Assembly (NCBI GenBank): GCA_028277845.1
Contig: JANQFL010000011.1
Span: 200,887-264,886 of the forward strand
DNA: 64,000 nucleotides
Direction: 5' to 3'
Source: Sneathiellales bacterium
Lineage (GTDB): Bacteria > Pseudomonadota > Alphaproteobacteria > JANQFL01
Part shown: positions 7,481 to 51,348 of the stretch, piece by piece
Layout of the letters: the number at the start of each line of letters is the position of its first letter
How positions within the stretch are numbered: the first letter of the stretch is position 1
Position numbers and translations under genes: made by a program
Notes under the pieces: model-generated
The model's input: the letters and a program-made list of their open reading frames with translations, nothing else
Databases searched by the model: none
What the model was told of the DNA's origin: nothing

Positions 7481-7483
7481 ACT

Positions 7484-13816: not shown

Positions 13817-13839
13817 CGCCGGAACTCAATTCGATTGTT

Positions 13840-15084
13840 TCAATAACGATGGAAACAGAGAACGGAGAGGTCATCGGGCAATGGTCCCGGCGCCCGCACG
13901 AAAAACCGGTTCAACAGGGATTCCATCATATCCTTGACGTTGGCGTGCCCGACGCTTTCCCCGGCCAGACGCAGCAGGTCGTCCTGTGTGAATACGGGGT
14001 CGGCCGGAGTCGGCGTTTCCACCAACGCATCACTGTAGAAAAAGAGCACATCGCCTTCACCGAAGGGCGTGGAATGAACCGTGTATTCGTTTTCCTTTCT
14101 GAATCCGACGGGCAGGCCGGCACTTTCGAGATAGCGAACGTCTCCGGAACGGTCGTTTGCCAAAATGGGTGGCGGGTGGGCCGCAGACGAATAGGTCAGG
14201 CGGTCGTTCTCGAGATCGAGAACGCCGATGATCATGGTCGCGAACTGCCCGGTCGGTAAAACCCGCGTGAAAAACGTATTCACCATTCCCAGATAATTGC
14301 CGGCGTCCACAATGGATTCGGACGCCATCCAATCCAGCAGGGTGTGCAGGCGAAACGTGTTCAACGCGGCGGTAACGCCATGACCGGAAAAGTCCGCCGA
14401 TACGAATCCAAGGCGGTTTTCGGTAATCGAGCGCAGGCCCCAGAAATCCCCGCCAAGCTCCTGGCAGGCTTCGTAGTGCGCCGCGATGCCCAGATTGTGA
14501 CGCGCCGAGAGCTTGTCGATGACGTCCTGACTGGGCATGAGGGCGCGTTGCATACCGTGCGCCATATCCAGTTCATAGCGCAACCGTTCCTGATAGATCG
14601 ACAGTTCCCGAATGAGAAACCGGTTTTCCAGATGGATTTTCACCCGTGCGATCAATTCGGGCGCATAGATCGGCTTCGTCACCAAATCCGTCGCGCCGAC
14701 ATCGAACGCCTTGGACCGTTCCTCCTCCGAATTGATTCCCGACTGAAACAGCACCGGTGTATCGCGCAGGAAAGGATCGGACCGGATTTTGCGGCAAACC
14801 TCGTAGCCATCCATGTCGGGCATGACGATATCGAGAAGAATCAGATCGGGCTTGATTTGCCGGGTCTTCTCGAGAGCTTCGTTGCCATCGGCGGCCTCTT
14901 CGACACAAGTGTAGCCGGCCTTCCGCAAATAGGCGGAAATCAAGGTCCGCTGCAATTTTCTGTCATCGACCACGAGGATGGACGCATCCAAGTTGTGTTG
15001 CTCGGATACCGTGGCCTCATGGGTGGCCTCGACCTCCAACGCCGGTGAGGCCGACACATTCTCCGCACGCAATGAAGCAGTCAT
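13840..15084 (-). CDS. Response regulator receiver plus PP2C-type (SpoIIE/RsbU-like) phosphatase
   Basis: ILVVDDRKLQRTL...DLILLDIVMPDMDGYEV...TKP forms the receiver. The C-terminus, with GGDFWGL and SDGL-like motifs, is PP2C. The track ORF extends to 15201, but the likely start is near MTASLRAEN. Confidence 0.75.
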   Translation of the reverse strand: MTASLRAENVSASPALEVEATHEATVSEQHNLDASILVVDDRKLQRTLISAYLRKAGYTCVEEAADGNEALEKTRQIKPDLILLDIVMPDMDGYEVCRKIRSDPFLRDTPVLFQSGINSEEERSKAFDVGATDLVTKPIYAPELIARVKIHLENRFLIRELSIYQERLRYELDMAHGMQRALMPSQDVIDKLSARHNLGIAAHYEACQELGGDFWGLRSITENRLGFVSADFSGHGVTAALNTFRLHTLLDWMASESIVDAGNYLGMVNTFFTRVLPTGQFATMIIGVLDLENDRLTYSSAAHPPPILANDRSGDVRYLESAGLPVGFRKENEYTVHSTPFGEGDVLFFYSDALVETPTPADPVFTQDDLLRLAGESVGHANVKDMMESLLNRFFVRAPGPLPDDLSVLCFHRY

Positions 15085-15110
15085 GGATATACCCAAACTC
15101 CGGCCGGCTT

Positions 15111-15419
15111 CTACATTTCCACGACGACCACATCGCCGATTTTGGCCAAATCCAGCAATTGCTTGACCTGACCGCGCGGTGATCGCAGTGCGAAATCCCA
15201 ACTGTTCTTCTGCAGTTCCTCATTGGCAATCATGAACATCCCCAGTCCCGCGGAATCGACGGAAGCCAACTGGGACAACTCGAACACGCATTTCTTTCCG
15301 CCATTTGAGATAACGTTCTTCAACACATCGCGGAATTCTCCATGGTCGGAGAACGTCAGTGCCTCGCTGAGCCGCACCACGACTTCGTTATCGGCCACAT
15401 TGACTTCGTGCTTCATCAT
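15111..15419 (-). CDS. STAS-domain anti-sigma-factor antagonist
   Basis: 102 aa with a SpoIIAA-like pattern, including the conserved phosphorylatable Ser region (...ELSQLASVDSAGLG...). Confidence 0.75.
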   Translation of the reverse strand: MMKHEVNVADNEVVVRLSEALTFSDHGEFRDVLKNVISNGGKKCVFELSQLASVDSAGLGMFMIANEELQKNSWDFALRSPRGQVKQLLDLAKIGDVVVVEM

Positions 15420-15430
15420 TCCCTCCTTTG

Positions 15431-16660
15431 CTAAAACAGTTCGACATCCCCGCCCGAGGCAGCGGCACCGGTGTCTTCTTCGTCCGGTATCGCGTCCTCT
15501 TCGTCAAACAACATGCGCCTGACGAAACGCTCCCGCATCTCGCCCAACGTGCAGCGGTTGACGACCGACAACAGCCATTCCTCGTCGACCACCGCGTCCT
15601 GATTGACATCCGAAACGGTCTCCCGCGTCTCGGCCTTCAAGTCATCGGTGGCATCACTGAGGACGGAGATGGTTCCGATGACGTTTTCCAATCTCTGTTT
15701 CGTACGGTCCTGGAATTGCGTGCCCGTGACCAGGCCGGAAACGTCTTTGGTGATGGCCTCGGCGACCTGCGCGGAATCCGACAGCGTGCTGGTGAACAGG
15801 TTGTTCTGCTCAACCAGTCCCTTCATCATTTTTTCGAGACGTTCCTTTGCAACGATCTGATCGGACATGTCGATGGCCGCGACCTTCTTTAATTCGGCGT
15901 GTCCGGACCGAACACCCTGCGTGACGGCCAGGACCTGTTCACGCATGTCGGTCGACAATCTATCGATTGTGCGGGACAGTTCCCGGACCTCTTCCGACAC
16001 CACACCGAAACCCTTGCCGGCGTCGCCGGCGCGCGCCGCCTCGATCTTGGCATTCATGGCCAGCAAGTTGGTCTGGTAGTTGATCGTTTCGATCTGGTCG
16101 ATGCAGGCCTCGACTTCTATGACGTGATTGATCACATCGTCGAGGGCATACACCATGGAGACGGCCTGCTTGGACATGAACAGGATCTTGTTGACCACGT
16201 CCATCAGCGTGCTCTCGAGAATCTGCGGAAACTCCGTCAGCCGGATGGACTCTCCATCCACTTCCACCTGCTGGGCCAGTTGGATGATCTCGAAGATACT
16301 CTCGGTCTGGCGCTGCGCATTGCCGGCCAGATTGGTAAATCGGCCGGAAAGGTCCTCCGTGCTTTCCTCGACCAGGTCGGAGGCAATTGTGATTTCGCCG
16401 CACAGGGCAGACAGGGTACGGCGTTGAATTTCCGACAGGCCGATCCAGCGGTCCAGGAACTCGACGACATCCGTGTGACTGTAATCCGGAGCGGTGTCGG
16501 CGTCCGCGGACAACCGCAGATCGTGTTCATCCACGGCCGTGCCGGATGTTTCGTGTTGGGCTTCGACGCAATCGATGGTCTCGGATTCATTGCCGGCCGT
16601 TTCGAACGGGTTTTCGGTTTCGTCCACCGCAAGGGCCGCCTTTTTCTTAAACCACAACAT
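15431..16660 (-). CDS. Soluble methyl-accepting chemotaxis protein (cytoplasmic MCP signalling domain)
   Basis: Has the highly conserved tip [39 protein letters not shown]. No TM segments. 409 aa. Confidence 0.8.
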
Positions 16661-16710
16661 CGATCCACTCGCCTCTCGCTAACCCAAACGTTCTCGACAT
16701 TCGCTCTGCA

Positions 16711-17781
16711 TCAAACCCGGACGGCCCGCACCGCGCGCGAACCGCAGCATGCAAGGATGGCCTCGCCGACCTTTCCGATGCCGACCTGCGTTTCCACGCC
16801 GCCGGCCTCGAAGGCGGCTTTCGGCATGCCGTAGACAACACAGGTGTTCTCGTCCTGCCCGATCGTGTTGGCACCGGCGTCACGCATGCATTTGAGCCCC
16901 TCGGCGCCATCACGGCCCATGCCGGTGAGAATAACCCCGACCGCATTGGCCCGCGCCACCTTGGCTACCGAAGAAAACAACACGTCGACGGACGGCCGAT
17001 GTCCACTGACGGGTGGTTGATCGTGCAATCGACAGACATAGTTGGCGCCCGAACGGGCCAGTTCGAGATGTTGATCACCCGGTGCGATGTATACGTGCCC
17101 GGGCAGCACGCGTTCGTTATGGCGTGCTTCCGACACGGATACATTGGCCATCTTGTTCAGACGTTCCGCGAAACTCGTTGTGAATTTCTCCGGCATATGT
17201 TGCGTCACCAGGATCGCCGGGCTGTCCGCGGGCAGCGGTATCACGACATCGCGAATGGCTTCCACACCGCCCGTCGACGCGCCGATCGCGACGACTTTCT
17301 CGGTTGACGAAAACCCTATGCCGGTCTTCAACGGTTTCCGGCTCGCCGCCGTTGAACGGTCGGTGCGGCGGACCCGGGCATTGGCGGCGGCTTTGACCTT
17401 GGCGATGATTTCCGCCTGTTTCTCGGACAGCCCCTGGGCCAAGTCCTGTGCCGGTTTGCCGACGAAGTCGACGGCACCGACTTCCAGCGCCTGAACGGTG
17501 GCTTCCGCGCCTTCCTGTGTCAGAGACGACACCATCACCACGGGCATCGGCCGCAACGACATGATTTTGGAGAGAAAAGACAACCCGTCCATCCTGGGCA
17601 TCTCGATATCCAGCGTCAGGACATCCGGATTGAGCTGTTTGATCTTGTCGCGGGCGACATAGGGATCGGGTGCCGCGAAAACGACTTCGATGTCGGGGTC
17701 GGCGTTGAGCATGGTTGTCAGCATTTGGCGCATCAGCGCCGAGTCGTCGACAACAATTACGCGGATGGGTTTGTCGGGCAT
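16711..17781 (-). CDS. cheB: Chemotaxis response regulator protein-glutamate methylesterase CheB
   Basis: Receiver ([13 protein letters not shown]...[12 protein letters not shown]) plus methylesterase domain (GASTGGVEA...HMP...GMGRDGAEG). Confidence 0.9.
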
Positions 17782-17790
17782 GGTGCGGCC

Positions 17791-18462
17791 TCAATCGAAC
17801 AGTTCGACATCACCGGCCACGGGCTTGCCGGCGATGGTCGCTTTGTATTTGCATTCGTTGGCGATGACAGCGCCGTCGCTGCTACGCCGCAGCAGCAGCC
17901 GCTTGACCTTGCCGGTGGCGGGAAAGTAGTGAATGCGCCGCGGCCGCTTGCCGCCGAGATCGACGGCCGTCGCCTCCAATCCCTCGTTCTTGAGATAATG
18001 CAAGGCGAAATCGGCGTTACGTTCGCCGATGAGCAATGATCCGTCCATGACGTTGCCGCCACCGAACAGCTTGATCTCCAACCGCCAGCGCGGACATCCC
18101 CGAACCAAGACGGTATTGATTAGGGTTTCCATGGCGTGGTTGCCGTATCGCATGGCGACGCCGCTGGTTTCACCCCAGTCGCCGGTGCTGCTGGCCGGCA
18201 ACATGAAATGATTCATGCCGCCGAAACCGGTTTCGGGATCACGGACACAGGCCGAAACGCAAGAGCCGAGTACCGTTACCAACATGTCTTCCGGATTCGA
18301 CGTGACATAATGTTCTCCCGGCAGCACCTTGCAGGCATAGGCGCGGAACATGGGATCGAAATAGCGTTTGATATGATGCGGCGGTTCGGGCTGACGGCGG
18401 TCCGGCGCGGTGCCACGCCGGTCACGCTTGCCGAAATCGGTCCGTGCGGCGGCAGTTGTCAT
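17791..18462 (-). CDS. cheD: Chemoreceptor glutamine deamidase CheD
   Basis: CheD-like sequence (VLGSCVSACVRDPETGFGGMNHFMLP). Overlaps the cheR stop. Confidence 0.8.
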   Translation of the reverse strand: MTTAAARTDFGKRDRRGTAPDRRQPEPPHHIKRYFDPMFRAYACKVLPGEHYVTSNPEDMLVTVLGSCVSACVRDPETGFGGMNHFMLPASSTGDWGETSGVAMRYGNHAMETLINTVLVRGCPRWRLEIKLFGGGNVMDGSLLIGERNADFALHYLKNEGLEATAVDLGGKRPRRIHYFPATGKVKRLLLRRSSDGAVIANECKYKATIAGKPVAGDVELFD

Positions 18463-19310
18463 GCCACCCTCCGGTAGACGGTCCGGCCCACAATCTTATA
18501 GCGCTGGCCGTCTTCGCGCAGGGATTCCGAATGCCCGATATAAAGCCACCCGCCCGGCTTGAGCAGAGAGGCGAATCGGTCGACCAGCCGTGCCTTGGTC
18601 GCCGCGTCGAAATAGATCATGACGTTGCGGCAGAAGATGGCATCGAACGGCCCCTTCATCGGCCAATTACCCAGCAAATTGAGCTGCTTGAATGCGATCA
18701 GTTCGCGCAGCGAGTCGGCCATGCGAACCGTGCCGGCATCGGCGGATTGGCAGAACTTGGCGTAGTAGCCGGCCGGCAGGGCTTCCTTGCAACTGGCGCC
18801 GTAGACACCGGCCCGGCCGGTGGCGACCATGTTGGTATCCAGGTCGGTGGCCAGGATGCGCGCATCCCAGGTATCCATGTTCGGCAGGGCACTGCGCGCC
18901 GTCATGGCGATCGAATAGGGTTCTTCGCCCGAAGAGCAGCCGGCCGACCAGATTCGCAGACGCTTCGACCCACCCGCCAATGCCTGAGCGTTGAGATCGC
19001 CGAGAACGGCCTCCTGCAAGTGATCGAAATGATGGGATTCGCGGAAGAATTTGGTCAGGTTGGTCGTAATGGCGTTGATGGCGTAACCGATTTCGTCACT
19101 GCCACCGTCGGCGATAAGGGCGCAATAGTCCTTGAAGGTCGACAGACCCAGTGCCCGCAACCGCCGGGCCAAACGGGCGTAGACCATGTTCTTTTTATGG
19201 TCGCCGAGGACAATGCCGGACTTTTCGTAGACGAGACGGGCCAGATAGGCGAACTCCTGTTCGGAGAACGCGAATTCCCGGTCCGCTTCCTGTTGTGCCA
19301 AAGCTTGCAT
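18459..19310 (-). CDS. cheR: Chemotaxis protein methyltransferase CheR
   Basis: CheR N-terminal plus SAM-MTase domain (RIWSAGCSSGEEPYSIAM...NVMIYF). Confidence 0.9.
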   Translation of the reverse strand: MQALAQQEADREFAFSEQEFAYLARLVYEKSGIVLGDHKKNMVYARLARRLRALGLSTFKDYCALIADGGSDEIGYAINAITTNLTKFFRESHHFDHLQEAVLGDLNAQALAGGSKRLRIWSAGCSSGEEPYSIAMTARSALPNMDTWDARILATDLDTNMVATGRAGVYGASCKEALPAGYYAKFCQSADAGTVRMADSLRELIAFKQLNLLGNWPMKGPFDAIFCRNVMIYFDAATKARLVDRFASLLKPGGWLYIGHSESLREDGQRYKIVGRTVYRRVA

Positions 19311-19385
19311 GACGCTTCCGTGCTCGAAGGGGATGGCGGGCCGCCCCGGCGGTGCCCACGCCGGGGCGGCCCACTGACGACCGGC

Positions 19386-22300
19386 CTAGAATTCGCTCCA
19401 GTCGGGGTCGTCCTCGACGGCGTCACTGATCGCCGCCTGCATTTCGGCGACGGCCACGCCGCCACCGCCACCTGCCGCGGCAACTTTCTGCATGGGAACA
19501 GGCTGACTCTTCGCTTGCGGTACCGGCGACTCGCCGCCGCCCGAAGCACCGGCGGCAACACCGTCGCTCAATCCGCCCTCAATGGAGAAGAACTCCATGC
19601 GGCTGTGCATGTTCCGCGATTGGTCTTCCAGTGTCTTGGCGGCCGCGGCGTTCTCCTCGACCAGGGCCGAGTTCTGCTGGGTCATCTCGTCCATTTGCGA
19701 TACGGCCGAATTGATCTGCTCGACACCGGTGGACTGCTCGTTGCTGGCGGCAGCGATCTCCGAGACGATATCGGTGACCCGCTTGATGGAGTCGACGATC
19801 TCGTTGAGAGACTCGCCGGCCGCGTTGACCAGCTTGACGCCGCCTTGGACCTGATTGCCGCTATCGACGATGAGCGATTTGATGTCCTTGGCCGCCTGGG
19901 ACGACCTCTGTGCCAGGGTACGAACCTCTGAGGCCACAACGGCAAAGCCCTTGCCGGCGTCGCCGGCCCTGGCGGCTTCCACCGCGGCATTGAGGGCCAG
20001 CAGGTTGGTCTGGAAGGCGATTTCGTCGATCACGCCGATGATGTCGGATATCTTCTGCGAAGAATCCTCGATCTTCGACATGGCATCGACCGCTTCACCG
20101 ACCACATTGCCGCCATTGGTGGCAATGTCGCGGGCGCTGATGGCCAACTGGTTGGCCTGCTGGGCGTTTTCGGCGTTCTGCTTGACCGTGGAGGCCATTT
20201 CCTCCATGGACGCGGCGGTTTCCTCCAGATTCGACGCCTGTTGTTCCGTGCGCTGAGACAGATCGGCGCTACCGTTGGAGATTTCCGAGGCGGCGTTGGC
20301 CACTTCGTTGGCCGCCACCATGATCTCGGTGACGATCTCGCTTAACTTGGTCGACGTGGTGTTGGCGTCGTTCTTCAGCGATTCGAACGCACCGCTGTAA
20401 TCCTTCGTAATGCGCTCGTTGAGATTACCGTCGGACAGGGCGCCCAGCACGCGGCCTACATCCTCCACCGCGTCGGCGACATTGGACGAGAGGCTGTTCA
20501 TGGCCTCGGCCAGCGTCTTCATGAAGCCGTCCTTACCGTCCAGCCCAATGCGGCGGCTGAAATCACCGGCGATGGCCGCCTGCACGACTTCGTCGACCTC
20601 GCTTTCGACCAGCTTCTCCTGGGTGATGTCCTTCCACTCGACGACGGTGCCGATGCGGTCGCCGTTATCGGGATCGATCACCGGATTACCGACCAGATTG
20701 AAGAACCGGCCCGCCGGCGAAATTTCGGCCTCGTACGTACCCGACATTTTCTCGAGCAAACCGCGCTGGTGCGCCGGGTTTTTGTGGAAGGTATCCATGT
20801 TGGTGCCGATCAGATTGGCGATGTCCAACTGGGGCAGTTCCTTCTTCAGGTCGGATTCCGCGTTGCGCAGCATGTCGACCATGGTCTTGTTCATGTAGAC
20901 GATATCGAAATTGCCGTCGGCGACCATGACGTTGGTCTTGCAGTTGTCGAGGGCGATCCGGATACGCAGATTCTCCTGGGCGGCGCGTTTTTCTTCACGC
21001 TCCCGGGCCAAACGCTCGGTCTTGTCGTCCCATTCGACGACGGTGCCGAGACGATTGCCGTTTTCGTCCAGTACCGGGTTGGCGATCAATCCGAACGTAC
21101 GTCCGGCCACTTCGATATCCGTGGCGTGGGTATCCTTCAGATTGGCGATCATCTGGCGCTGATGGGACGGATCCTTGTGGAAAACATCCACGTTGGTGCC
21201 CATTAGTTTGCCGCTGTCGAAATGGGTCAATTCCTTGGTCAGATCGGCTTCGGCGTTTCGCATCATCTCGTGCATCGTCTGGTTCATGTAGACGATGTTC
21301 ATGTCGTCGTCGGCGACCATGACGTTGGTGTTGCAGTTGTCGAGCGCAATCTTGATGCGCAGGTTATCGCGCGCCACCAACTCCTGTTCCAACTTGCGAT
21401 CCTTGAACACCTGAACGGCGCTGGCCAGGACACCGAACTCGTCACGCCGGCCCAGTCCCGGAACCGGTACGTCCTCGCCGTCGGCCAGTTGCGTCACGGC
21501 ATCGCTGATGGCCTGTACGGGTCGGGACACCGTGCGGGCCAGGAAGAAGCCGATGGTGCCGACACCCAGCACACTACCCAGGGTGATCAGCAGAATGAGA
21601 TTTCGCATATCCCGGACCGGCGCCTCGATTTCCTCCAGCTCGGCTTCCATGATCAGGGCATAGTTATGGCCATGGAACTCGAAAGGCAGATACGAGGACA
21701 GTACTTCGGTGCCGTGATAGCCGGTGATGATCCGGGTACCGGATTCACCGTTGAGGGCGGCCGTGACGGTTTCGGTGTCGACCTTCTGTTTGAGAACAGT
21801 CGATTCCTTCATCAGCCGCGAGTCGTTCCGCATAAAACGGTCTTCACCGACCAGGAACGCCTCGCCGGTTTCACCCAATCCATGCGATAGACCGAGCACT
21901 TTGTTGAACTTGTCCGTCGGCATCATGACGGCCAGTACGCCGATCGGATTGCCACCCTCATCGAGCACGATGGTCGACATGAAGCTGGCCGGGTCCCCGT
22001 GGGACGGCTCGTAGGGCTTGAAGTCGTAATAGGACTGATACTCCGGACTGGGATTATTGCGTGCCGCCCGGTAGGCATTGCCCAGGTCGGTTTCGCGCCA
22101 CCGCCCGGTCATCACGTTGGTTGCGAAGTCCGTTTCCTTGAACACCGAATAGACCAGATTGCCGTCCATATCGAACAGAAAGACGTCATGGTAGCCGTGC
22201 TCGTGCATCACGTCGCGGAACCAGGGGTGAAACCGGCGATGGATTTCGCTATAGGCGCTGCCATCGGGCGCGGCGTCGTACCTGTCTTTCTCGGCAACGG

Positions 22301-22688
22301 GATTAGGGTTCTCCTGGATATACAGTTTTTGCAGCGTCCGGGTCTGATTGCCAACCAACGCATTCCAGCCGCGGGTAAACTCGGAAACCGCCTCGCGGAC
22401 GGCCAGGTTGGTCGACATCAAGTGCAGATCGTGTTCGATGCTTTCAAGATATTCCTTGAGGTCGACGTGGCGGGTATCGAGCAGGGAACTGATGCGCAGT
22501 TCCGCTTCCTTGCGGACCTCGATCTCTGAGGACACATAGCTGCCGACGCCGACGCCCAATGCCGCCAGCAATGCAGCGCCGGCAATGATCAGCGGCAGTT
22601 TCGTGCCGACATTCATGTCAAGTTTCAGCCAGCGGCGCTTGGCCTTGGGTTCGGCGATCTCTACATCGTCGATCGTGGTGGTGGTCAT
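19386..22688 (-). CDS. Methyl-accepting chemotaxis protein with periplasmic Cache-like sensor, HAMP, two PAS domains and MCP signalling domain
   Basis: Likely start MTTTTIDD at 22688 with a GAGGAA Shine-Dalgarno sequence. The track ORF extends to 22847, overlapping cheW. It has a TM helix near the N-terminus, a second TM around residue 400, and repeated PAS-like segments. The tip reads [43 protein letters not shown]. Confidence 0.85.
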
Positions 22689-22722
22689 TGCGGGTTCCTC
22701 GAATGAAGTGTTTTTGATTACG

Positions 22723-23301
22723 TTATGCGTTAGCGATCTCGGCGGCGGCGGCAACCGTGTCGATGTCGCCGGCAAACAATTCTCCCAGGTTGAGTAACGC
22801 GACCATGCTGTCGTTGATCGATACGAGCCCGGACAGGAATTGCGCATCGTTCGTTCGTTCCATCTCGGGCACCGGCCGGATTTCTTCGCTGCCGACCGTC
22901 AGAATGTCGGATACGGCGTCAACCAACAGTCCGACGATGCGTTCGCCGATGCTGACGATGATGACGACATGCGTGGGCGTCGCTTCGGTCGATCCCATGC
23001 CGAACCGGCAGCGCATATCAAAGATCGGCACGATGACACCGCGCAGGTTCAGCACACCCCGCATGTACTCCGGTTGATTCGGCAGCGACGTCACTTCGGT
23101 CCACCCCTTGATCTCCCGCACTGAAATGATATCGACGGCGTATTCCTCGCTGCCGATGGTAAAGCTGATGAACTGACACGTTTCACCTGAGCTTTCCGCC
23201 TGTTCCTCTTCCCGCCAGCCGTCGCCGGATGCCATGGCGGCATTGGGACCTGTTGCGGTTGGGTCCTGCGATTCGATTTGGGTCTGGTCAGTCAGTTCCA
23301 T
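22723..23301 (-). CDS. cheW: Chemotaxis coupling protein CheW
   Basis: CheW fold ([22 protein letters not shown]...[16 protein letters not shown]). The start is uncertain (it may be an internal Met). It overlaps the cheA stop. Confidence 0.8.
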
Positions 23302-25508
23302 GACTGTGGCTCCGGGTTTGCGTTGTCAGAAGTGGGGACGGGCGGACGTCCGATAGCGAGCGCGGTCGCATCAGTCGGAGGGGTCAGTTCGCTACCGGAC
23401 GCCGCCCGAACCGGAGGGGAGGTAGCCTGAGTGCCCAGGCCGCCGTTGGTGCGGCATGGGCCGAGGGATGCGCTCTCCAAGGCGTCGAGGTCGAGGATCA
23501 GAGCCACCCGGCCGTTGCCGAGAATGGTGGCGCCCGAAATACCGTCGACCGGATCGTAATTGGCTTCAAGGCTCTTGATGACGACCTGCTGCTGGCCCAG
23601 CAGTTCGTCGACAAACACGCCGATACGGCTGCCGTTCTCGGTTTCGACAAGTACGACCAACCCGCTGGAGGGATCGGTGATGGCGTCCGGAACGTCGAAC
23701 TGGCGATGCAGATAGACCATGCGGATATAGTCGCCGCGGATCGACACAACCTCGCTTTGGTTGACCAGGGTGTGGATGTCATTGGGTTCCGGCCGCAGGG
23801 TCTCGACGATGCTGGTCAAAGGCAGGACGTATTTCTCGGCACCGACCGCGACGATCATTCCGTCCAGCACCGCCAGGGTCAGCGGTAGGGTCAGGGAGAA
23901 CCGGCTGCCTTTGCCGGGAACCGAATCCACCGACACGCGGCCGCCGAGATTGGCGATGTTGCGTCGGACCACGTCCATGCCGACGCCGCGGCCCGATACA
24001 TCGGTGACCTCGTCGGCCGTCGAAAAGCCGGCCTCGAAGATCAGGTTGTCGATCTCCTCGTCGGCCGGATGGGCATCGGCGGCGACGATACCGCGTTCGA
24101 CCGCCTTGGCCAGAACCTTTTCACGGTCGATGCCGCGACCGTCGTCCTCGATCTGGATCAGGATCCGACCGCCCCGATGTTCGGCGGACAGCTTGATACG
24201 GCCTTCGGCGGGTTTGCCGGCGGCCTGCCGTTCCTCGGGCGATTCCAGACCGTGGTCCAGGGAGTTACGGATCATGTGCGTCAATGGATCACCGAGTTCC
24301 TCGATCACCGTCTTGTCGATCTCCGTTTCCTCGCCGCTGGTTTCCAGAACCACCTTCTTGCCCAATTTGGACGACAGGTCGCGGACGATCCTGGGCATGC
24401 GCGAAAAAACGGATTTCACCGGCTGCATGCGGATGGCCATGACGCCTTCCTGCAGTTCCCGCGTATGAAGTGCGAGATCCTCGAGGCCTTGCATGGGTAC
24501 GCCGGCACCCTCGCCGGTGTTGTCCAGAACCTGCTGGCGCAGCATGGCCTGCGTGATGACCAGTTCGCCTACCATGTTGACGAGGCGGTCGATGCGATCG
24601 AGGTCCACCCGGATGGAATTGACCTTCGAGCGTTTACCCGAACCGCCGTCGCCGGCTTGGGCGGACGGCTGTTTGGCCTTCTGCGCCTTATCGTCCTTGG
24701 CAGCCGCGGTAACGCTCGGCTCGTCGTTGTTCCGAGAGGGTGCGTCTTCGCTGCCTGGTGTCGCCGTGATGTCCAAGTCGCAATCGTCGACGACAAACTC
24801 GAAGACCTCCTCGATGGCCTGCAAAGGCTGATCGCTGGTCAACACGAACGTCCAGCCAATATAGGCCTGCTCGGGATCGAGGGACTGCAAGGGCGGCAGC
24901 TTCGCACAGTCGGGTTTGGCGACGACATCGCCCAGCCGACGCAGTTCGCGGACCAGAAGCAGAGGTTCGTTGGCGTGACGAAACAGGTCGGCGTGTGGCC
25001 GGAATACGATGGTGTAGATCATTGTTCCGGTGTCTTGCGGCGCGCTCGGGCCGGCATCTTGCGTGTCTGCGGCGGGGCCATCATCGGCGCCGGATACGCC
25101 TTTGATGACGTCGATCTGGTTCTGGATCTGCTCCAGTGTGTCGGAACCGAAACCGTCCTCGACTGCGCGATTGTCCTGCGCCGCGTCGACCAGGTCTGCG
25201 ACGATGTCCGCGGCCTTGATCAATAGCTGGCACACCTCGTCGGTCACCTCGGCTTCGCCCGCACGAAGTAGGTCGAGCAGGTTCTCGAACGCGTGGCTGA
25301 ACTCGACCAGCTCGACAAACTTGAATGCCCCGGCGCCGGCCTTGATGGAATGAATCGCCCGGAAGATGGCATTCATGTCCTCGGAATCGATGTGCGCCGC
25401 ATCAAGCGACGTCAGCCGATTTTCGAGATCGCTGAGCAGTTCGGCGCATTCTTCGAAGAATGTCGCGGCAAACTGTGCGAGGGGATCTGCTGGGTTTTTC
25501 TCGGTCAT
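23292..25508 (-). CDS. cheA: Chemotaxis histidine kinase CheA
   Basis: Hpt domain with phospho-His (IFRAIHSIKAGAGAF), a P2 linker, the dimerisation domain, the HATPase (DDGRGIDREKV...GRGVGMDVV) and a C-terminal CheW-like domain. Confidence 0.9.
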   Translation of the reverse strand: MTEKNPADPLAQFAATFFEECAELLSDLENRLTSLDAAHIDSEDMNAIFRAIHSIKAGAGAFKFVELVEFSHAFENLLDLLRAGEAEVTDEVCQLLIKAADIVADLVDAAQDNRAVEDGFGSDTLEQIQNQIDVIKGVSGADDGPAADTQDAGPSAPQDTGTMIYTIVFRPHADLFRHANEPLLLVRELRRLGDVVAKPDCAKLPPLQSLDPEQAYIGWTFVLTSDQPLQAIEEVFEFVVDDCDLDITATPGSEDAPSRNNDEPSVTAAAKDDKAQKAKQPSAQAGDGGSGKRSKVNSIRVDLDRIDRLVNMVGELVITQAMLRQQVLDNTGEGAGVPMQGLEDLALHTRELQEGVMAIRMQPVKSVFSRMPRIVRDLSSKLGKKVVLETSGEETEIDKTVIEELGDPLTHMIRNSLDHGLESPEERQAAGKPAEGRIKLSAEHRGGRILIQIEDDGRGIDREKVLAKAVERGIVAADAHPADEEIDNLIFEAGFSTADEVTDVSGRGVGMDVVRRNIANLGGRVSVDSVPGKGSRFSLTLPLTLAVLDGMIVAVGAEKYVLPLTSIVETLRPEPNDIHTLVNQSEVVSIRGDYIRMVYLHRQFDVPDAITDPSSGLVVLVETENGSRIGVFVDELLGQQQVVIKSLEANYDPVDGISGATILGNGRVALILDLDALESASLGPCRTNGGLGTQATSPPVRAASGSELTPPTDATALAIGRPPVPTSDNANPEPQSWN

Positions 25509-25522
25509 GGCACGTTTCGAAG

Positions 25523-25888
25523 TCAGCCGCAGACCTTGCCGACGACTTGCAGCAGTTTTTCCGGTTCAAACGGTTTGACGATCCAACCGGTGGCGCCGGC
25601 GGCGCGGCCTTCGGACTTTTTCTGGTCATCCGATTCCGTGGTCAGAATCAGTATGGGTGTCGTGCGATGGCTGGGATTTTCGCGCAGCTTTTTGACCAGC
25701 GTAATGCCATCCATGTTCGGCATGTTGATGTCGGTGATCACCAGATCGACCCGTCCGTCACCCAGCGTGGACAGGGCGTTGACGCCGTCATCGGCTTCAA
25801 TGACGTCATAGCCGGCGTTCTTGAGCGTGAAACAAACCATGTCGCGCATGGTCTTGGAATCGTCGACCGTCAATACGCGTTTCGACAT
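25523..25888 (-). CDS. cheY: Chemotaxis response regulator CheY
   Basis: 121 aa. Contains DDS, DLVITDINMPNMDG and the KPF motif. Confidence 0.9.
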   Translation of the reverse strand: MSKRVLTVDDSKTMRDMVCFTLKNAGYDVIEADDGVNALSTLGDGRVDLVITDINMPNMDGITLVKKLRENPSHRTTPILILTTESDDQKKSEGRAAGATGWIVKPFEPEKLLQVVGKVCG

Positions 25889-26200
25889 TTACTCGTCCCT
25901 CCAGTCATTCAACTCGGCGGCAAATCCCAAGTCCACGAACGCCTTCTGCAGTACATCCGACGGTGTAACCATGATCAGTCTGCGATTTCCGGCGCGCAGG
26001 ATTTCTGACGCTGAGAGCAGGACCTGCAATCCGGGCGTGTCGATCCTTTCGACCGCGGCACCTTGAACGGCGACGTCACCGGTGCCGCTGACCGCATCAA
26101 GCAGGGCATCCTTTAGGGTCTCCGCCGAAACCAAGTCGATTATGGGAATCAGAGTGACCTGGGAATGGTCGTTCCGATGCTCCACCGCAAAGTCACCCAC
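25889..26200 (-). CDS. STAS-domain protein (anti-sigma-factor-antagonist-like), first gene of the che operon
   Basis: 103-aa SpoIIAA-like fold. It abuts the cheY start. Confidence 0.65.
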   Translation of the reverse strand: MGDFAVEHRNDHSQVTLIPIIDLVSAETLKDALLDAVSGTGDVAVQGAAVERIDTPGLQVLLSASEILRAGNRRLIMVTPSDVLQKAFVDLGFAAELNDWRDE

Positions 26201-41397: not shown

Positions 41398-41991
41398 CTA
41401 CTTTTTGATTTCCACTGAGCGCATGGTTGAATGGGAATAGATTTCCAATATTACCTTGATGTCGTTTGTTTTCTTGTTCTTAGCGCACTCCAGTAGCCGC
41501 CAAGAACGGTCCAAATTGTGAACTTCAACCCGCCCCAATCCGATCCCCGCATTCGGCCTGAGATGATATCGGCATGGATTGGCGGAGATCTCCAAAATCG
41601 CATTTCGAACATCGTCGAGATCGAATAAGTCTTTGCTCGTACGGAGAACCACGCAGTGTTCCAAGAAGATGTAACTTGGGCAGTGTTTTTTGGAGTCCGT
41701 GCTGTCGACAATTTTACAAGTCCGCCGTGATTCTTTGTTCTTTTCAAGCAGTTCGTCCGGTTGACAATACTTGGCACCGAGGCCAACGATTGGAACCGCC
41801 GGGACGTAGAGATCGTGAGCGTTGCGATTGGTAATGCGAGCAACGATTAATTCGGCGACTGCGGCGCTACGGTAAATGTCGACATTGTAATAGTGGTAAT
41901 GTCGATCCCACGACCGCTTAACCCAAGCTACGAGTAACAATGCCGCAACAGCGGTCGCAATGGCGATTTTTCGCTTGCTGAGGCGTGTCAT
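41398..41991 (-). CDS. Orphan hypothetical protein with an N-terminal signal-anchor and 6 Cys, in an AT-rich islet
   Basis: 197-aa ORF inside a roughly 700-bp low-GC patch (41.35-42.08 kb). No recognisable domains. Confidence 0.35.
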   Translation of the reverse strand: MTRLSKRKIAIATAVAALLLVAWVKRSWDRHYHYYNVDIYRSAAVAELIVARITNRNAHDLYVPAVPIVGLGAKYCQPDELLEKNKESRRTCKIVDSTDSKKHCPSYIFLEHCVVLRTSKDLFDLDDVRNAILEISANPCRYHLRPNAGIGLGRVEVHNLDRSWRLLECAKNKKTNDIKVILEIYSHSTMRSVEIKK

Positions 41992-46065: not shown

Positions 46066-46680
46066 GTGTCCGAGCGTCCCAGCGACATCGCCTTCAGCGA
46101 TGCGGTGCGCCGCATGCAGGAGAAGCTGGGCTCGCGGGCCGACTATGCCCGGACGGAGAAGAAGGGCTTCATGCGCAACCGCCTGGACGAGGACGCCCGG
46201 ACGTACATTGCCCAGCGCGACTCCATGTATCTTGGCACGGCGTCCGCCGACGGCCGGCCCTACATCCAGCACCGGGGCGGGCCGAGGGGTTTCCTCAAGA
46301 TCATCGACGACTACACCCTGGCCATGGCCGATTTTCCCGGCAACAAGCAATACATCTCGCTCGGTAATCTGTCGGAGAACAATCAGGCCTTTCTGTTCCT
46401 GATGGACTATCCCAACCGCATGCGCATGAAAATCTGGGGTCGCATAACGCTGGTCGAGGATGACCAGGAATTGCTGAAACTGGTCGACGACCCCGCCTAC
46501 ATCGCCCGGCCGCTACGCGTCCTGGAGTTCGCCGTCGAAGCCTTCGACTTCAACTGCCCCAACCACATCACTCCGCGCTACCCGGAAGCCCAAGTCGCCG
46601 CCGCCATCGCCAAACTGGAAGGCCGCATCGAGGAATTGGAGGTGGAGTTGGCACGGGCGCGAGGCGACGGCACAAATTAA
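46066..46680 (+). CDS. Pyridoxamine 5'-phosphate oxidase-like FMN-binding protein
   Basis: Split-barrel family pattern (YLGTASADGRPYIQHRGGPRGF). Confidence 0.65.
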   Translation: MSERPSDIAFSDAVRRMQEKLGSRADYARTEKKGFMRNRLDEDARTYIAQRDSMYLGTASADGRPYIQHRGGPRGFLKIIDDYTLAMADFPGNKQYISLGNLSENNQAFLFLMDYPNRMRMKIWGRITLVEDDQELLKLVDDPAYIARPLRVLEFAVEAFDFNCPNHITPRYPEAQVAAAIAKLEGRIEELEVELARARGDGTN

Positions 46681-47594
46681 CCCACCGCCACCCGTTGCTG
46701 CAGCCGCTGCCAATCCTGATCCACCTCGGACTGAATGGCGGCGACGCCGTCGTCGGTGAGGTGGCGGTAGCGTTTCTGCAGGGACAGATAGTCGCCCACC
46801 GGGCGCGATTTGCCGTCGGTGTTCATGGTGTAGGTGACGCCGTCCTCCACTTCGAACAGCGGGAACACACCGGACTCCACGCCCATGCGGGCGGTCTTGA
46901 CGGCGGCGTTGTCGGCGACGCCCCAGCCGGGCAGGCAGGGGATCAAAACGATGATCACCTTCATGCCGCGAATGCCCTTGGCCTTCTCCACCTTGGCCGC
47001 CAGGTCGTTGACGTGGGACGGGCTGGCGGTGGCGATGTAGGGGATGCGGTGGGCCGCCAGGATTTCGATCAGGTTCTTCTTGCGGGTGTCCTTGCCGCCG
47101 GGCGTGCTGCCGGTGGCGGCGTTGAGCGGCGTCGACGAGGACTTCTGCCCGCCGGTGTTCATGTAGCCTTCGTTGTCGAAGCAGATGTAGAGGATATCCT
47201 CGTTGCGCTCGGCCGCTGAGGAGAGGGCCTGCAGGCCGATGTCGTAGGTGCCGCCGTCGCCGGCAATGCACAGCACCGTGGTGTCGTGCTTGCCCTTGGC
47301 CATCAGCGCCCGTTTGACGCCGCTGGCCGACGCCGCGCCCGATTCCAGCGTGGTATGGAACACCGGGATGTTGACCGAACTCATCGGATAGCCGCCGCAG
47401 ATCACGGCGGTGCAGGACGGCGGCACCACGGCCACGGCGTCCTTGCCGACGGTGTTGAGGATGACGCGCAGCGACAAAGCCTCGACGCAACCGCCGCAGG
47501 CCACATGGCCGGAGTTGAACAGGCCGTCGTCCTGATAGTCGATCATCTCCATCGTTCTACTCCACCCATTGCGAGGTTGCGGACGGTTCGGCAT
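46677..47594 (-). CDS. 2-oxoacid:ferredoxin oxidoreductase beta subunit (TPP-binding)
   Basis: CIAGDGGTYDIG...GYMNTGGQ TPP motif and the Cys cluster CGGC. Confidence 0.85.
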   Translation of the reverse strand: MPNRPQPRNGWSRTMEMIDYQDDGLFNSGHVACGGCVEALSLRVILNTVGKDAVAVVPPSCTAVICGGYPMSSVNIPVFHTTLESGAASASGVKRALMAKGKHDTTVLCIAGDGGTYDIGLQALSSAAERNEDILYICFDNEGYMNTGGQKSSSTPLNAATGSTPGGKDTRKKNLIEILAAHRIPYIATASPSHVNDLAAKVEKAKGIRGMKVIIVLIPCLPGWGVADNAAVKTARMGVESGVFPLFEVEDGVTYTMNTDGKSRPVGDYLSLQKRYRHLTDDGVAAIQSEVDQDWQRLQQRVAVG

Positions 47595-48738
47595 CGCGGT
47601 AGTCCGCCACCAGTTGTTTGATCTTCGAGGCCGGCACGTTGACGCCGCCGACGCCGGCCAGCAGGCCGTGCACCGCCGGCGCCTTGTCCAGGCCGTAGAG
47701 GGCGCTGGTCAGTTCCTGGTGCAGGATGCCGCCCATGCCCGGCGAATAGTTGCGATCGAGCACCATGACGCGGGGCACGCCGGCCAGGGCACTACGCAGG
47801 TCGGCGACCGGCAACGGCCGGAACAGGCGCACCTTCAGGAGCCCGACGGCTTCGCCCTGGTCGCGCAAGGCGTCGACCGCCTCGCGCACGGTGCCGCACA
47901 TGCTGCCCATGGTGACGATGACCGTCTCGGCGTCCTCGGTGCGGTAATGTTCGAGCGGGCCGTAGGACCGGCCGGTCAGGTCGCCCCAGGCCTGCCCGGC
48001 TTCGGTCACCTTGTCCTGGACCTGGGACATCGCTTCGGCCATCTCGCGCCGGCTGCGGTTCCAGGTGGCCTGGTCGATGGGGGCACCGAAGGACTGGCCC
48101 TTTTCGGTATCGAGGCGCAGTTCCGGCTCGTAGGGCGGCAGGTAGCCGTCGACCAGCGACTGGCTCGGCACCTCGACCGGTTCGACGGCGTGGGAGACGT
48201 AGAAGGCGTCGTGGCTGATCATGGTCGGGATGCGCAAACTTTCGGCGACCCGGAACGCCTGGATCACCGAGTCCAGAGATTCCTGCGGCGTTTCGCTGTA
48301 GAGCTGCACCCAGCCGGTATCGCGCTGGGCCAGGCTGTCGAGCTGGTCGGGCCAGAAGCCCCAGGGCGAGGCCGGGGTGCGGTTGACGTTGACCATGACG
48401 ATGGCGGCCCGGGCGCCGGCCGCGTAGTGCAGCAGCTCGTGCATCAGCAGCAGGCCCTGCGACGACGTGGCGGTGAACACCCGGCCGCCGGTCAGGGACG
48501 CGGCGATGCAGGCGGACATGGCCGAGTGTTCGGATTCCGGGGTCAGCAGTTCGCCGTCCAGCTCACCGTCGCGCTTGAATTCGGCGATGCGTTCGAGAAT
48601 GGGCGTCTGCGGCGTGATGGGGTAGACCGGGGCCACGTCGGGCCGGGCCAGCTTGGCGCCCCAGGAGACGGCGTGGTTACCGCTCAGCAGGAGCCGGTTG
48701 GAGTTGCCGGGCTTGTCGATATTCGGGGCTATGTTCAT
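47557..48738 (-). CDS. 2-oxoacid:ferredoxin oxidoreductase alpha subunit
   Basis: PorA/KorA pattern (GNHAVSWGAKLARPDVAPVYPITPQT...SEHSAMSACIAAS). Confidence 0.85.
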   Translation of the reverse strand: MNIAPNIDKPGNSNRLLLSGNHAVSWGAKLARPDVAPVYPITPQTPILERIAEFKRDGELDGELLTPESEHSAMSACIAASLTGGRVFTATSSQGLLLMHELLHYAAGARAAIVMVNVNRTPASPWGFWPDQLDSLAQRDTGWVQLYSETPQESLDSVIQAFRVAESLRIPTMISHDAFYVSHAVEPVEVPSQSLVDGYLPPYEPELRLDTEKGQSFGAPIDQATWNRSRREMAEAMSQVQDKVTEAGQAWGDLTGRSYGPLEHYRTEDAETVIVTMGSMCGTVREAVDALRDQGEAVGLLKVRLFRPLPVADLRSALAGVPRVMVLDRNYSPGMGGILHQELTSALYGLDKAPAVHGLLAGVGGVNVPASKIKQLVADYRDAEPSATSQWVE

Positions 48739-48742
48739 GGCC

Positions 48743-49010
48743 TAGTACCCCCTATGAGGATTAGATGCGTCATGAGACGGCCAATGCCGTCCCGTGGCTA
48801 GGAGCGAAGACGAAGGCGATGCGGCACATCGGTGAGACGGCGCGACGACGTCCACGGGACGGCATTGGCCGCCCGCTGGGTCGTTTTTCGCATCCCACCC
48901 GGGGCGTCGCTGCGCTTGCCCGATGTCCCACATCGCTCGGCGAGCAGCTCCTACCGAGTGGGGGCGAAAAAACGATCTCATGATGCATCTAATCCTCATA
49001 GGGGGTACTA
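48743..49010. repeat. 268-bp structured element with 35-bp terminal inverted repeats (34/35 identical) and an internal 19-bp-arm hairpin. MITE-like, or an intercistronic RNA structure
   Basis: Left TIR 48743-48777 TAGTACCCCCTATGAGGATTAGATGCGTCATGAGA. Right TIR 48976-49010 is its reverse complement with one mismatch. Inner hairpin arms at 48779-48797 and 48852-48870. The element fills the entire gap between two co-oriented genes. Confidence 0.7.
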
Positions 49011-50651
49011 ACCCTCCTCGTACATCATGACCGACCCGGTGGGACATTCGGCAACGCACAGGCCGCAGCCCTTGCAGTAATCCGATTTCACCTCGTAGCC
49101 GTTCTCCAGCTTGGTGATGGCCATGTCGGGGCAGTAGAGGTAACAGTTGTCGCAGAAGATGCAGGTGCCGCAGGAGAAACAGCGCTCGGCCTCGGCCAAG
49201 GCGTCGGTGTGCTCCAGCCGCTGCTGCACTTCGTTGAAATTCTCCAACCGACCGGCCACGTCGGTGTTGGCCGGAACGTGCCGGGCGACATCGGGGTAGT
49301 AGTCCGAACTGATGGCCTTGTAGGGCACGATGGTCAGCTCGGGGAACGTGTCCCGGTCCTCACCCGAACCGATGTAGCGGGCGATCTCGACCGCCGCCTG
49401 TTTGCCCATGCCGATGGCCTGGGTGACGAAGCGGTCCATGCTGGCCAGATCACCGCCGGCGAACACGCCGGGCGTGGCCGTCTGCCAGTCTGATCCCGTG
49501 CCGACCACGGGTCCGTCGTCCGCCACCACACCCTGCCAACGGGTGATGTCGGCGTCCTGGCCGATGGAGGGAATGACCGCATCGGCCGACAACGTGAATT
49601 CGCTGCCGTCAATGGGATCGATGGTGAAGACGCCCCGTTTCTCGCCAGCCTGGAAGTTCACCTTGATGCAGTTCAGCACCAGACCATCGCCGTTTGCGCC
49701 GGCCGACTGCATCATGGCACCGGTGACGAAGGTGACGTCCTCTTCCATCGCTTCGTCCACCTCGACCCGTTGCGCCGGCAACTGGTCTTCGGGCTCCAGC
49801 GACAGGACCGTCACCTCGCGGCCCAGGCGCCGGGCGGTGCGGGCCACGTCCATGGCCGCGCTGCCGCCGCCGATGACGACGATGCGCTTGCCGAGGGTGC
49901 ATTCTTCGCCGGCGTTGGTGGCGGCCAGGAAATCGGCGCTGTCCATCACCCAGGGCTGGCTATAGTCGAGGCCGGGCAAGGCCTTGGAGCGGCTGGCGCC
50001 GGTCGCCAGATAGACCGCGTCGTGTTTGTCGTGCAGGGCCTTCAAGGCGTCGGCGTCCCCGACCTCGGCGTTGAGGTGCACGTCCACGCCCAAATCGAGA
50101 ATGCGCTGGATCTCGCCGTCCAGGATGGCCTTCTCGAGCCGGTAGGCCGGAATGCCGTAGCGCAGCAGGCCGCCGAGCTGGTCCTTGGATTCATAAAGCG
50201 ATACCTGGTAGCCGCGCCGGCGCAACTGATAGGCCGCCGACAGGCCGGCCGGCCCGCCGCCGATCACCGCAACCGATTCGCTGCGTTCGGTATCAGGCTT
50301 GTCAAAGGCCCAGCCTTCCGCCAGCGCCATGTCGCCGACGAATCGCTCGAGCGAGCAGATGCCCACCGTCTCGTCCAGATATTGGCGGTTGCAGGCGCTT
50401 TCACACGGGTGGTGGCAGATACGTCCGGCAATGGCGGGGAACGGATTGTTGTCGGCCAGGGTCAGCCAGGCGCCGCGGTAGTCCTTTTCCTTGACCTGGC
50501 GCACCCATACGGCGATGCGGCCGTCGACGGGACAGGCGCCGAGGCAGGGCGACGGCAAGGTGCGGTAGTCGGGCGACGCGCTGCGCCAGGTGCCGGTCAT
50601 GCGCACGCTGGACGGCGTGTGGGTCCAGAGGGGAGAAGGCTGGCTGCTCAT
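49008..50651 (-). CDS. GltD-like NAD(P)H-dependent oxidoreductase (glutamate synthase small-subunit family) with 4Fe-4S clusters
   Basis: VAVIGGGPAGLSAAYQL and RIVVIGGGSAAMD dinucleotide folds. Cys clusters CxxCxxxCP at the C-terminus and an N-terminal Fe-S region. Likely start MSSQPSP at 50651 (the track ORF extends to 51329, overlapping porG). Confidence 0.8.
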   Translation of the reverse strand: MSSQPSPLWTHTPSSVRMTGTWRSASPDYRTLPSPCLGACPVDGRIAVWVRQVKEKDYRGAWLTLADNNPFPAIAGRICHHPCESACNRQYLDETVGICSLERFVGDMALAEGWAFDKPDTERSESVAVIGGGPAGLSAAYQLRRRGYQVSLYESKDQLGGLLRYGIPAYRLEKAILDGEIQRILDLGVDVHLNAEVGDADALKALHDKHDAVYLATGASRSKALPGLDYSQPWVMDSADFLAATNAGEECTLGKRIVVIGGGSAAMDVARTARRLGREVTVLSLEPEDQLPAQRVEVDEAMEEDVTFVTGAMMQSAGANGDGLVLNCIKVNFQAGEKRGVFTIDPIDGSEFTLSADAVIPSIGQDADITRWQGVVADDGPVVGTGSDWQTATPGVFAGGDLASMDRFVTQAIGMGKQAAVEIARYIGSGEDRDTFPELTIVPYKAISSDYYPDVARHVPANTDVAGRLENFNEVQQRLEHTDALAEAERCFSCGTCIFCDNCYLYCPDMAITKLENGYEVKSDYCKGCGLCVAECPTGSVMMYEEG

Positions 50652-50665
50652 CGGTTGGGATTCCG

Positions 50666-51205
50666 TCAGTTGGCGTCGCGGATCTGCTGGTAGGCTTCGC
50701 GGCAGGCGGCGATGTTCTGCTGCTGCTTGGCCGGCGCGGTCTGTTCGATGACCTCGCACATGGTCTCGATGCCCGGCTCGTCGAGGGCGGCGACGAAGGC
50801 GCCGAGCAGGGCCGAGTTGACCACCTTGCCCAGGTCGTTCTTCTGGGCGATGTCCAGCCCGTCCACCGGCACGAAGGTGTAGTTGCCCAAATCGGCAAAG
50901 GCTTCTTTCGGCTGGCGGGAATTGACGACGACGGTGGTGCCTTCCTCGACACCGCGCAGGAAGGTTTCGTCCAACAGGCTGTCGTCGAAACACAACATGG
51001 CCGACGCCTCCTCGATGTTGCAGCGCAGGCGGATCGGCTTTTCGTCCACGCGCAACGACGACGTCACCGGCGTGCCGCGCCGGGCGCCGCCGTAGGTGGC
51101 GAATGTCTGGACATACTGGCCTTCGTCGAAATAGGCCCGGGCCAACTGGTTGCCCGCCGTTTGCGCACCCTGGCCGCCGCGGCCGAGGATCACGATCTCG
51201 CGCAT
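50666..51205 (-). CDS. 2-oxoacid:ferredoxin oxidoreductase gamma subunit
   Basis: MREIVILGRGGQGAQTAGNQLARA is a typical PorG N-terminus. The track ORF begins 34 codons upstream. Confidence 0.8.
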   Translation of the reverse strand: MREIVILGRGGQGAQTAGNQLARAYFDEGQYVQTFATYGGARRGTPVTSSLRVDEKPIRLRCNIEEASAMLCFDDSLLDETFLRGVEEGTTVVVNSRQPKEAFADLGNYTFVPVDGLDIAQKNDLGKVVNSALLGAFVAALDEPGIETMCEVIEQTAPAKQQQNIAACREAYQQIRDAN

Positions 51206-51302
51206 GGTCTCTTCCCCCGATCGTTGTTGTCGCCCGGCGTCCACGCACACGGGTTCGCGCACGCCACGAGCCGCCCTGGGCAATACCCATCGCGTGCGTG
51301 AG

Positions 51303-51348
51303 GTCAATAATAGTTGACCCCGCCAACAATTTATTTGATCGAAATCAG
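51303..51348. promoter_or_regulatory. Candidate regulatory site upstream of the por operon: palindrome GGTCAA-N6-TTGACC and a near-consensus FNR-type box TTGATcgaaATCAg
   Basis: Seen directly at 51303-51320 and 51335-51348, about 100-140 bp upstream of the porG start. Confidence 0.3.

Follow-up and report, generated by a model that had tools for sequence, protein, structure and literature searches.

Palindromic repeats of the ERIC/IRU and REP/BIME kinds in enterobacteria lie between co-transcribed genes, where they change mRNA folding or stability. The Correia elements of Neisseria (CREE/NEMIS), with the repeat consensus TATAG[CT]GGATTAAC..., insert at TA and are often co-transcribed with the flanking genes, and their terminal inverted repeats (TIRs) form a hairpin in the mRNA that is bound or cleaved by RNase III, whereby expression is altered (PMC2649163). 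The RUP elements of pneumococcus likewise have TA as their target and carry TIRs similar to those of IS630-Spn1, by which they are thought to be mobilised; RU/ERIC-type elements are covered in the same source, as are the CIR elements of Caulobacter and other Alphaproteobacteria, the RNA of which has two hairpin arms with a linker between them (PMC2229807).

Here, we describe an element of comparable build inside a four-gene operon for a 2-oxoacid:ferredoxin oxidoreductase, located in a 64-kb stretch of DNA (hereafter the window, to which all coordinates refer). An insertion of the MITE type, i.e., of a non-autonomous DNA transposon, at the TA of a stop codon is the best explanation of this element and, in our judgement, a very probable one. 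All four genes are on the minus strand. In order of transcription, they are porG, encoding the gamma subunit (50666-51205, 179 aa, POR gamma PF01558), a gene for a GltD-like NAD(P)H/FAD subunit fused to a 2x[4Fe-4S] delta-type ferredoxin domain (49008-50651, 547 aa; Pfam Fer4_20, Pyr_redox_2 and Fer4_21), porA for the alpha subunit (47557-48738, 393 aa; Pfam POR_N and PFOR_II), and porB for the beta subunit (46677-47552, 291 aa; Pfam TPP_enzyme_C). Both porA and porB are intact, with GC3 values of 0.91 and 0.89, respectively. The element lies between the fusion gene and porA; this junction is 269 nt long, the one between porG and the fusion gene 14 nt, and the one between porA and porB 4 nt. 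The last of these (47552-47560, minus strand), composed of TAG, 4 nt and ATG, is a second TA-containing coupled junction and is free of the element. As regards the extent of the fusion gene itself, the mechanically called ORF runs over 49008-51329 on the minus strand (773 aa from a TTG) and overlaps porG in another frame with its first 226 codons; judging from the 546-552-aa orthologs, which match a product of 547 aa, the true start is almost certainly the ATG at 50651.

As seen in the window, the whole element occupies 48743-49010 and measures 268 bp, including both flanking TA dinucleotides. An earlier note on this DNA had reported 35-bp TIRs at both ends with one mismatch, and they are indeed there: the arms (48743-48777 and 48976-49010) are complementary at 34 of 35 positions (97%), and the single mismatch sets G at 48769 against an A as read on the other arm. 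Without the TA, the TIRs are 33 nt each; the left one (48745-48777) reads GTACCCCCTATGAGGATTAGATGCGTCATGAGA, and the right one (48976-49008) ends with a base, 49008, that is C on the plus strand and G on the minus strand. Within the 64-kb window, there are exactly two occurrences of the 26-nt TIR core, inverted relative to each other, where none is expected (100 shuffles), and the TIR pair is by far the strongest inverted repeat of the whole window. The GC content is 46% in the 35-nt arms including TA, 68% in the interior of the element, and 61% in the window. Hairpin A (48778-48871), which the earlier note had listed with 19-bp arms, is real and slightly longer, having a perfect stem of 20 bp (48778-48797 / 48852-48871) and a loop region of 54 nt. 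The further imperfect palindromes that the note had placed between the TIRs were also found, two of them being located: hairpin B (48881-48975), which is imperfect and has 22-nt arms (48881-48902 / 48954-48975) with 73% complementarity, and a pairing of 48816-48847 with 48905-48936. When the left half of the interior was compared with the reverse complement of the right half, 65 of 110 columns were identical, a score reached by 7 of 2000 shuffles; in direct orientation, the two halves showed no significant likeness. Since the halves are alike in inverted orientation, hairpin B is a diverged inverted copy of hairpin A, and the element in its entirety forms a degenerate palindrome, the termini of which are sharply better conserved.

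No coding potential was found in the element: its ORFs have no Pfam match, and its six-frame translations have no homologs among 5.8 billion proteins. Two mirror-image ORFs of 72 aa are present (48765-48983 on the plus strand and 48770-48988 on the minus strand), each having its ATG in one TIR and its TGA stop in the other; they exist because the TIR holds a ATGCGTCATGA motif (ATG/TCA). With neither Pfam nor homology support, they were rejected as genes, and an automatic annotation could easily call them as such.

The length of 268 bp (the range for MITEs being roughly 50-600 bp), the non-coding sequence, the TIRs, the TA at both ends and the definable empty site are all those of a MITE, and the duplicated TA target is that of MITEs derived from IS630/Tc1-mariner elements, with the 3-bp CTA as an alternative reading. 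Like the Correia elements, the present one is short and non-coding, is bounded by TIRs, has TA as its target, and has ends able to give a neighbouring gene its expression signals; however, Correia elements are known to supply promoters, whereas a base of a stop codon and a Shine-Dalgarno (SD) sequence are supplied here. It is also longer (268 bp as opposed to 104-157 bp), has two internal arms in place of a simple stem, and resides in an alphaproteobacterium-like host rather than in Neisseria. Membership in the Correia family was rejected, as the termini read TAGTACCCCCTATG... in place of the consensus, and the only likeness is a gapped 10-of-14 match that is internal, not terminal. With RUP and the IS630-derived MITEs, the element shares the TA target, the TIR-bounded and non-coding structure, and a presumed mobilisation in trans (PMC2229807), yet there is no similarity in sequence, and neither a transposase nor a partner element of the IS630 family was found in the window. 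It resembles the ERIC/IRU and REP/BIME sequences in being palindromic and in lying between co-transcribed genes, but the sequence, size and host differ, and REPs have neither long TIRs nor a TA duplication. The alphaproteobacterial setting and the two hairpin arms recall the CIRs; those, however, are ~110 bp long, are defined by conserved GANTC sites and have no enclosing 5'-3' terminal stem. No GANTC occurs within 48743-49010, and CIR membership was rejected on that ground.

That the element was inserted into a formerly tight junction is indicated by a comparison with related operons. PorA homologs of 75-81% identity were located and their loci compared, which gave seven independent orthologous operons sharing the gene order porG / gltD-fusion / porA / porB where the contig was long enough; the closest named PorA relatives are alphaproteobacterial MAGs. 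Between the upstream stop and the start of porA, the seven relatives have 4, 11, 10, 5, 9, -4 and -4 nt, as compared with 269 nt here, and the element is absent from all seven junctions. The upstream protein of the window ends with ...CPTGSVMMYEEG before its stop; its C-terminus equals those of the relatives in length, hence the insertion neither truncated nor extended the protein. In five of the seven relatives, a TAG stop is found at the equivalent position, after a conserved CPTG motif. On the strength of this comparison, the element is an insertion and not a conserved spacer. The earlier note had proposed a MITE-like element lying exactly between two genes of the operon, and the TIRs, the TA flanks, the lack of coding capacity and the absence from the seven orthologous junctions all bear this out.

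The inverted symmetry ends exactly at TA on both sides, and the element ends read TA-GTACC...GGTAC-TA. One TA, proximal to porA (48743-48744), reads cc-TA-GTACC, and the other (49009-49010) supplies the T and the A of the upstream TAG stop on the minus strand. TA is the only direct repeat common to both flanks that leaves symmetric TIRs, and we regard the two copies as a putative 2-bp target-site duplication, although a palindromic duplication of 2 bp is weak evidence alone and formally indistinguishable from a TIR that is two bases longer. The 3-bp CTA likewise recurs in direct orientation at the two ends of the element and provides an alternative reading of the duplication. A 4-bp YTAR duplication of the IS5 type, with CTAG at one end and CTAA at the other, needs one mutation and leads to the same empty site; TA was preferred. 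Since the CTA and CTAG/CTAA readings give an identical empty site, the reconstruction is independent of where the TIR is separated from the duplication. On the minus strand, the occupied site is GAGGAGGGT TA-GTACCCCC...GGGGGTAC-TA GGCC ATG, and removal of the element together with one TA yields GAGGAGGGT-TAG-GCC-ATG (reconstructed empty site GAGGAGGGTTAGGCCATG), so that the net insertion amounts to 266 bp, i.e., a 264-bp element plus one duplicated TA. The empty site thus reads GGT TAG GCC ATG, with the stop, 3 nt and the start in succession and a native GGAGG 8 nt before the ATG, which is the layout seen in the relatives, e.g., GGCAGGAATAGCGCCATG in L001. It is a reconstruction, the closest relatives compared being only ~80% identical in PorA and none of them belonging to the same species.

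The most economical course of events would be that a 264-bp degenerate palindrome with 33-nt TIRs entered the TAG stop, at its TA, where the fusion gene and porA were tightly coupled. Such an insertion would have duplicated the target TA, as is typical of elements mobilised by IS630/Tc1-mariner and of MITEs of the Correia, ERIC and RUP types. No dinucleotide is rarer in the window than TA (observed/expected 0.52); consequently, a TA-specific element has few landing sites in coding DNA, and the TAA and TAG stops are among them.

The consequences for the two adjoining genes can be read from the ends of the element. The TAG stop of the fusion gene (49008-49010, minus strand) is composite: TA is target sequence, and G was contributed by the element. 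Because the TIR starts with G, TA followed by G rebuilds a stop codon in either orientation of the element, leaving the upstream protein unchanged. Each TIR also bears an outward-facing AGGGGG, 7 nt from the element end, and the copy at 48748-48753 (minus strand), an SD-like motif inside the TIR, is situated 9 nt upstream of the porA ATG (48738-48736). The native GGAGG, contained in the last codons of the upstream gene (49013-49017, minus strand), is displaced by 266 nt; with the original site so far from the ATG of porA, the only SD available would be the AGGGGG that faces outward in the other TIR. The proposal that the element donates both the stop codon and the SD sequence, though accurate as a description of the sequence, therefore needs to be amended in two respects. 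As to the stop, the element supplies the G, and the TA is duplicated target, given that the empty site already reads TAG and that five of the seven relatives have TAG at the same codon position. As to the SD, AGGGGG is truly the only SD-like motif near porA, 9 nt before its ATG, but it takes the place of a native GGAGG that has been moved away.

The sense RNA of the element is predicted to fold with an MFE of -174.3 kcal/mol (z = -12) into a Y shape, in which the TIR stem and two arms meet at a three-way junction; the TIR duplex alone accounts for approximately -57 kcal/mol. In the predicted mRNA fold, the AGGGGG is fully paired (probability of being unpaired ~0), and the AUG, 5 nt past the stem, is free. 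As the SD is buried in this fold, free-standing initiation at porA should be poor. In the fold of the empty site, GGA and AUG are largely unpaired. The UAG stop forms the first base pair of the TIR stem, and when the 9-12 nt after the stop were forced to be single-stranded, as under the footprint of a ribosome, the SD left the TIR stem and retained weak local pairing only. A scan of 48400-49400 for promoters revealed no sigma-70-like site, and the sole terminator-like site on the sense strand is weak, consisting of a 6-bp stem followed by CCTTCGTCTT. With no promoter and no convincing terminator, the element is most likely transcribed through within the operon mRNA. From these folds, a hypothesis regarding the expression of porAB may be put forward: a ribosome that terminates at the UAG, where the stem begins, would melt the first ~10 bp, precisely the part paired with AGGGGG, and free the SD, and the TIR stem, by setting the stop and the start side by side, would preserve the coupling of termination to reinitiation. 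Such termination-dependent unmasking, i.e., retained translational coupling, is according to the modelled structures the most likely route by which porAB stays expressed. By analogy with the Correia elements, we infer RNase III cleavage of the long, near-perfect 35-bp TIR duplex as an alternative or additional route, and one or both of the two may operate.

The same features could be taken to mean that the insertion has since been exapted, the hairpin now serving as an RNase III processing site, as an mRNA stabiliser, or as an uncoupler that sets a different ratio of the gamma/delta to the alpha/beta subunits. A very stable RNA structure that hides the SD would suit such a role, porA and porB are intact and have a high GC3, and Correia elements do alter expression through RNase III (PMC2649163). 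Nevertheless, the element occurs once, hence there is no conservation to indicate selection, and near-perfect TIRs (34/35) would be seen just as well in a recent insertion that is no more than tolerated; the high GC3 of the intact genes is likewise compatible with a tolerated insertion or a recent one. Moreover, the four subunits form one enzyme, for which uncoupling has no obvious benefit. We consider exaptation unlikely.

A MITE would be expected to have relatives, and other copies were sought in several collections. No second copy of the element or of its TIR was found elsewhere in the 64-kb window, and none of the ~50 window ORFs scanned encodes a transposase. The exact TIR 23-mer had no match in 185,579 species genomes or in the JGI metagenomes, nor did the exact 18-mer in the same species genomes, both scans being insensitive to diverged copies. 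The exact 17-mer gave 8 matches in metagenomes and the 16-mer 4 viral ones (IMG/VR); these were rejected as copies and attributed to chance, as none extends past the seed or has an inverted partner. BLASTN of the element and the TIR against plasmids (72,556) and phages returned nothing or chance matches (Bacillus, E = 5; an Arthrobacter phage). The six-frame translations of the element, concatenated and aimed at spurious ORFs called on other copies, found no relatives among the 5.8 billion proteins, and a string search of the literature for the TIR retrieved only unrelated primers.

These negative results lend some weight to a different origin, namely a single-copy palindromic or foldback insertion that arose without a transposase, for instance by hairpin-mediated repair or by capture of a foreign palindrome, and that belongs to no mobile family: neither another copy nor a parent IS came to light in the collections searched, and the whole element is a degenerate palindrome. 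However, termini of 35 nt that are near-perfect, next to interiors that are ~60% identical, have the look of TIRs bound by a transposase, and TA on both flanks agrees with a target preference that is well known. The searches themselves relied on exact 17-23-mers, and the source was covered by the 64-kb window only. Consequently, such an origin appears quite improbable to us.

Still less credible is the other reading offered in the earlier note, in which the sequence is not mobile DNA but a structured RNA that belongs to the por operon itself and is conserved with it, serving in processing or attenuation. An extremely stable predicted fold and a position exactly between two cistrons would be expected of such an RNA. 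The sequence is nevertheless missing from the seven orthologous operons, the intergenic distances of which are -4 to +11 nt; none of the seven carries it as a conserved spacer, the outcome by which that reading could have been upheld. No Rfam family matches it either: the region searched at E values up to 10 and the whole window searched at gathering thresholds gave only chance miRNA and snoRNA matches, those in the region with E above 3. The TIR-plus-TA architecture together with a clean empty site are, on the other hand, hallmarks of a transposon, and we regard an intrinsic RNA as very improbable. A chimeric or inverted-repeat misassembly, conceivable since the nearest relatives are metagenome-derived, the source may be so too, and palindromes can be artefacts of this kind, is hardly credible at all, as the element sits mid-contig in an otherwise colinear operon, its flanks rejoin in frame at a single TA, and its interior is not derived from neighbouring sequence.

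The surroundings of the operon in the 64 kb are of ordinary chromosomal content and include a chemotaxis cluster, ispH, rnhA, thrC and cox/cta genes. GANTC sites are strongly depleted in the window (125 as compared with 290 ± 16 expected from shuffles). Such a depletion is expected in alphaproteobacteria that bear CcrM, and the value is consistent with a CcrM-methylating alphaproteobacterium. The region 5401-9688 is of atypical composition and failed a GC3-based gene filter; it contains a gene for a C-5 cytosine DNA methylase (5401-6396, plus strand) and, on the minus strand, genes for a 368-aa protein with no Pfam match (7480-6374) and for a 734-aa protein with two GHKL ATPase domains, HATPase_c_3 and HATPase_c (9688-7484), and may be a restriction-modification or defence islet. 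A 197-aa ORF at 41398-41991 (minus strand), with a GC3 of 0.57 compared with ~0.8 in its neighbours and with no Pfam match, may be of foreign origin, or no genuine gene at all. The large chemotaxis cluster (12905-26200, minus strand) encodes CheY, CheA-CheW, a 1153-aa MCP with dCache, PAS and HAMP domains, CheR, CheD, CheB and a second MCP. It is bracketed by parts of a partner-switching system, i.e., a STAS protein (25889-26200), a response regulator-SpoIIE phosphatase (13840-15201) and a HATPase_c_2 anti-sigma-type kinase (12905-13816), which suggests a chemosensory pathway with a non-motility output.

Taken as a MITE-type insertion, the element neatly illustrates a type of event that is already known and fairly ordinary, and does not represent a new class of system. 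For annotation, it explains the odd gap of 269 nt in a tight operon and cautions that gaps of this sort should not be taken for riboswitches or attenuators. It also provides a concrete, testable construct for the question of whether a long hairpin can bridge the coupling of termination to reinitiation. The case shows cleanly that two translationally coupled genes can be separated by a mini-transposon that targets TA while both reading frames stay unbroken. It is conceivable, if distinctly unlikely, that the element belongs to an undescribed MITE family with 'operon-neutral' ends, which would combine a stop codon restored on entry into a TAA or a TAG in either orientation, an outward SD in each TIR, and a stem that joins stop and start, the SD being unmasked by the terminating ribosome so that coupling outlasts an insertion of 266 nt. 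If such ends were general, they would amount to a built-in strategy by which a selfish element colonises the scarce TA sites, often those of stop codons, of a GC-rich genome.
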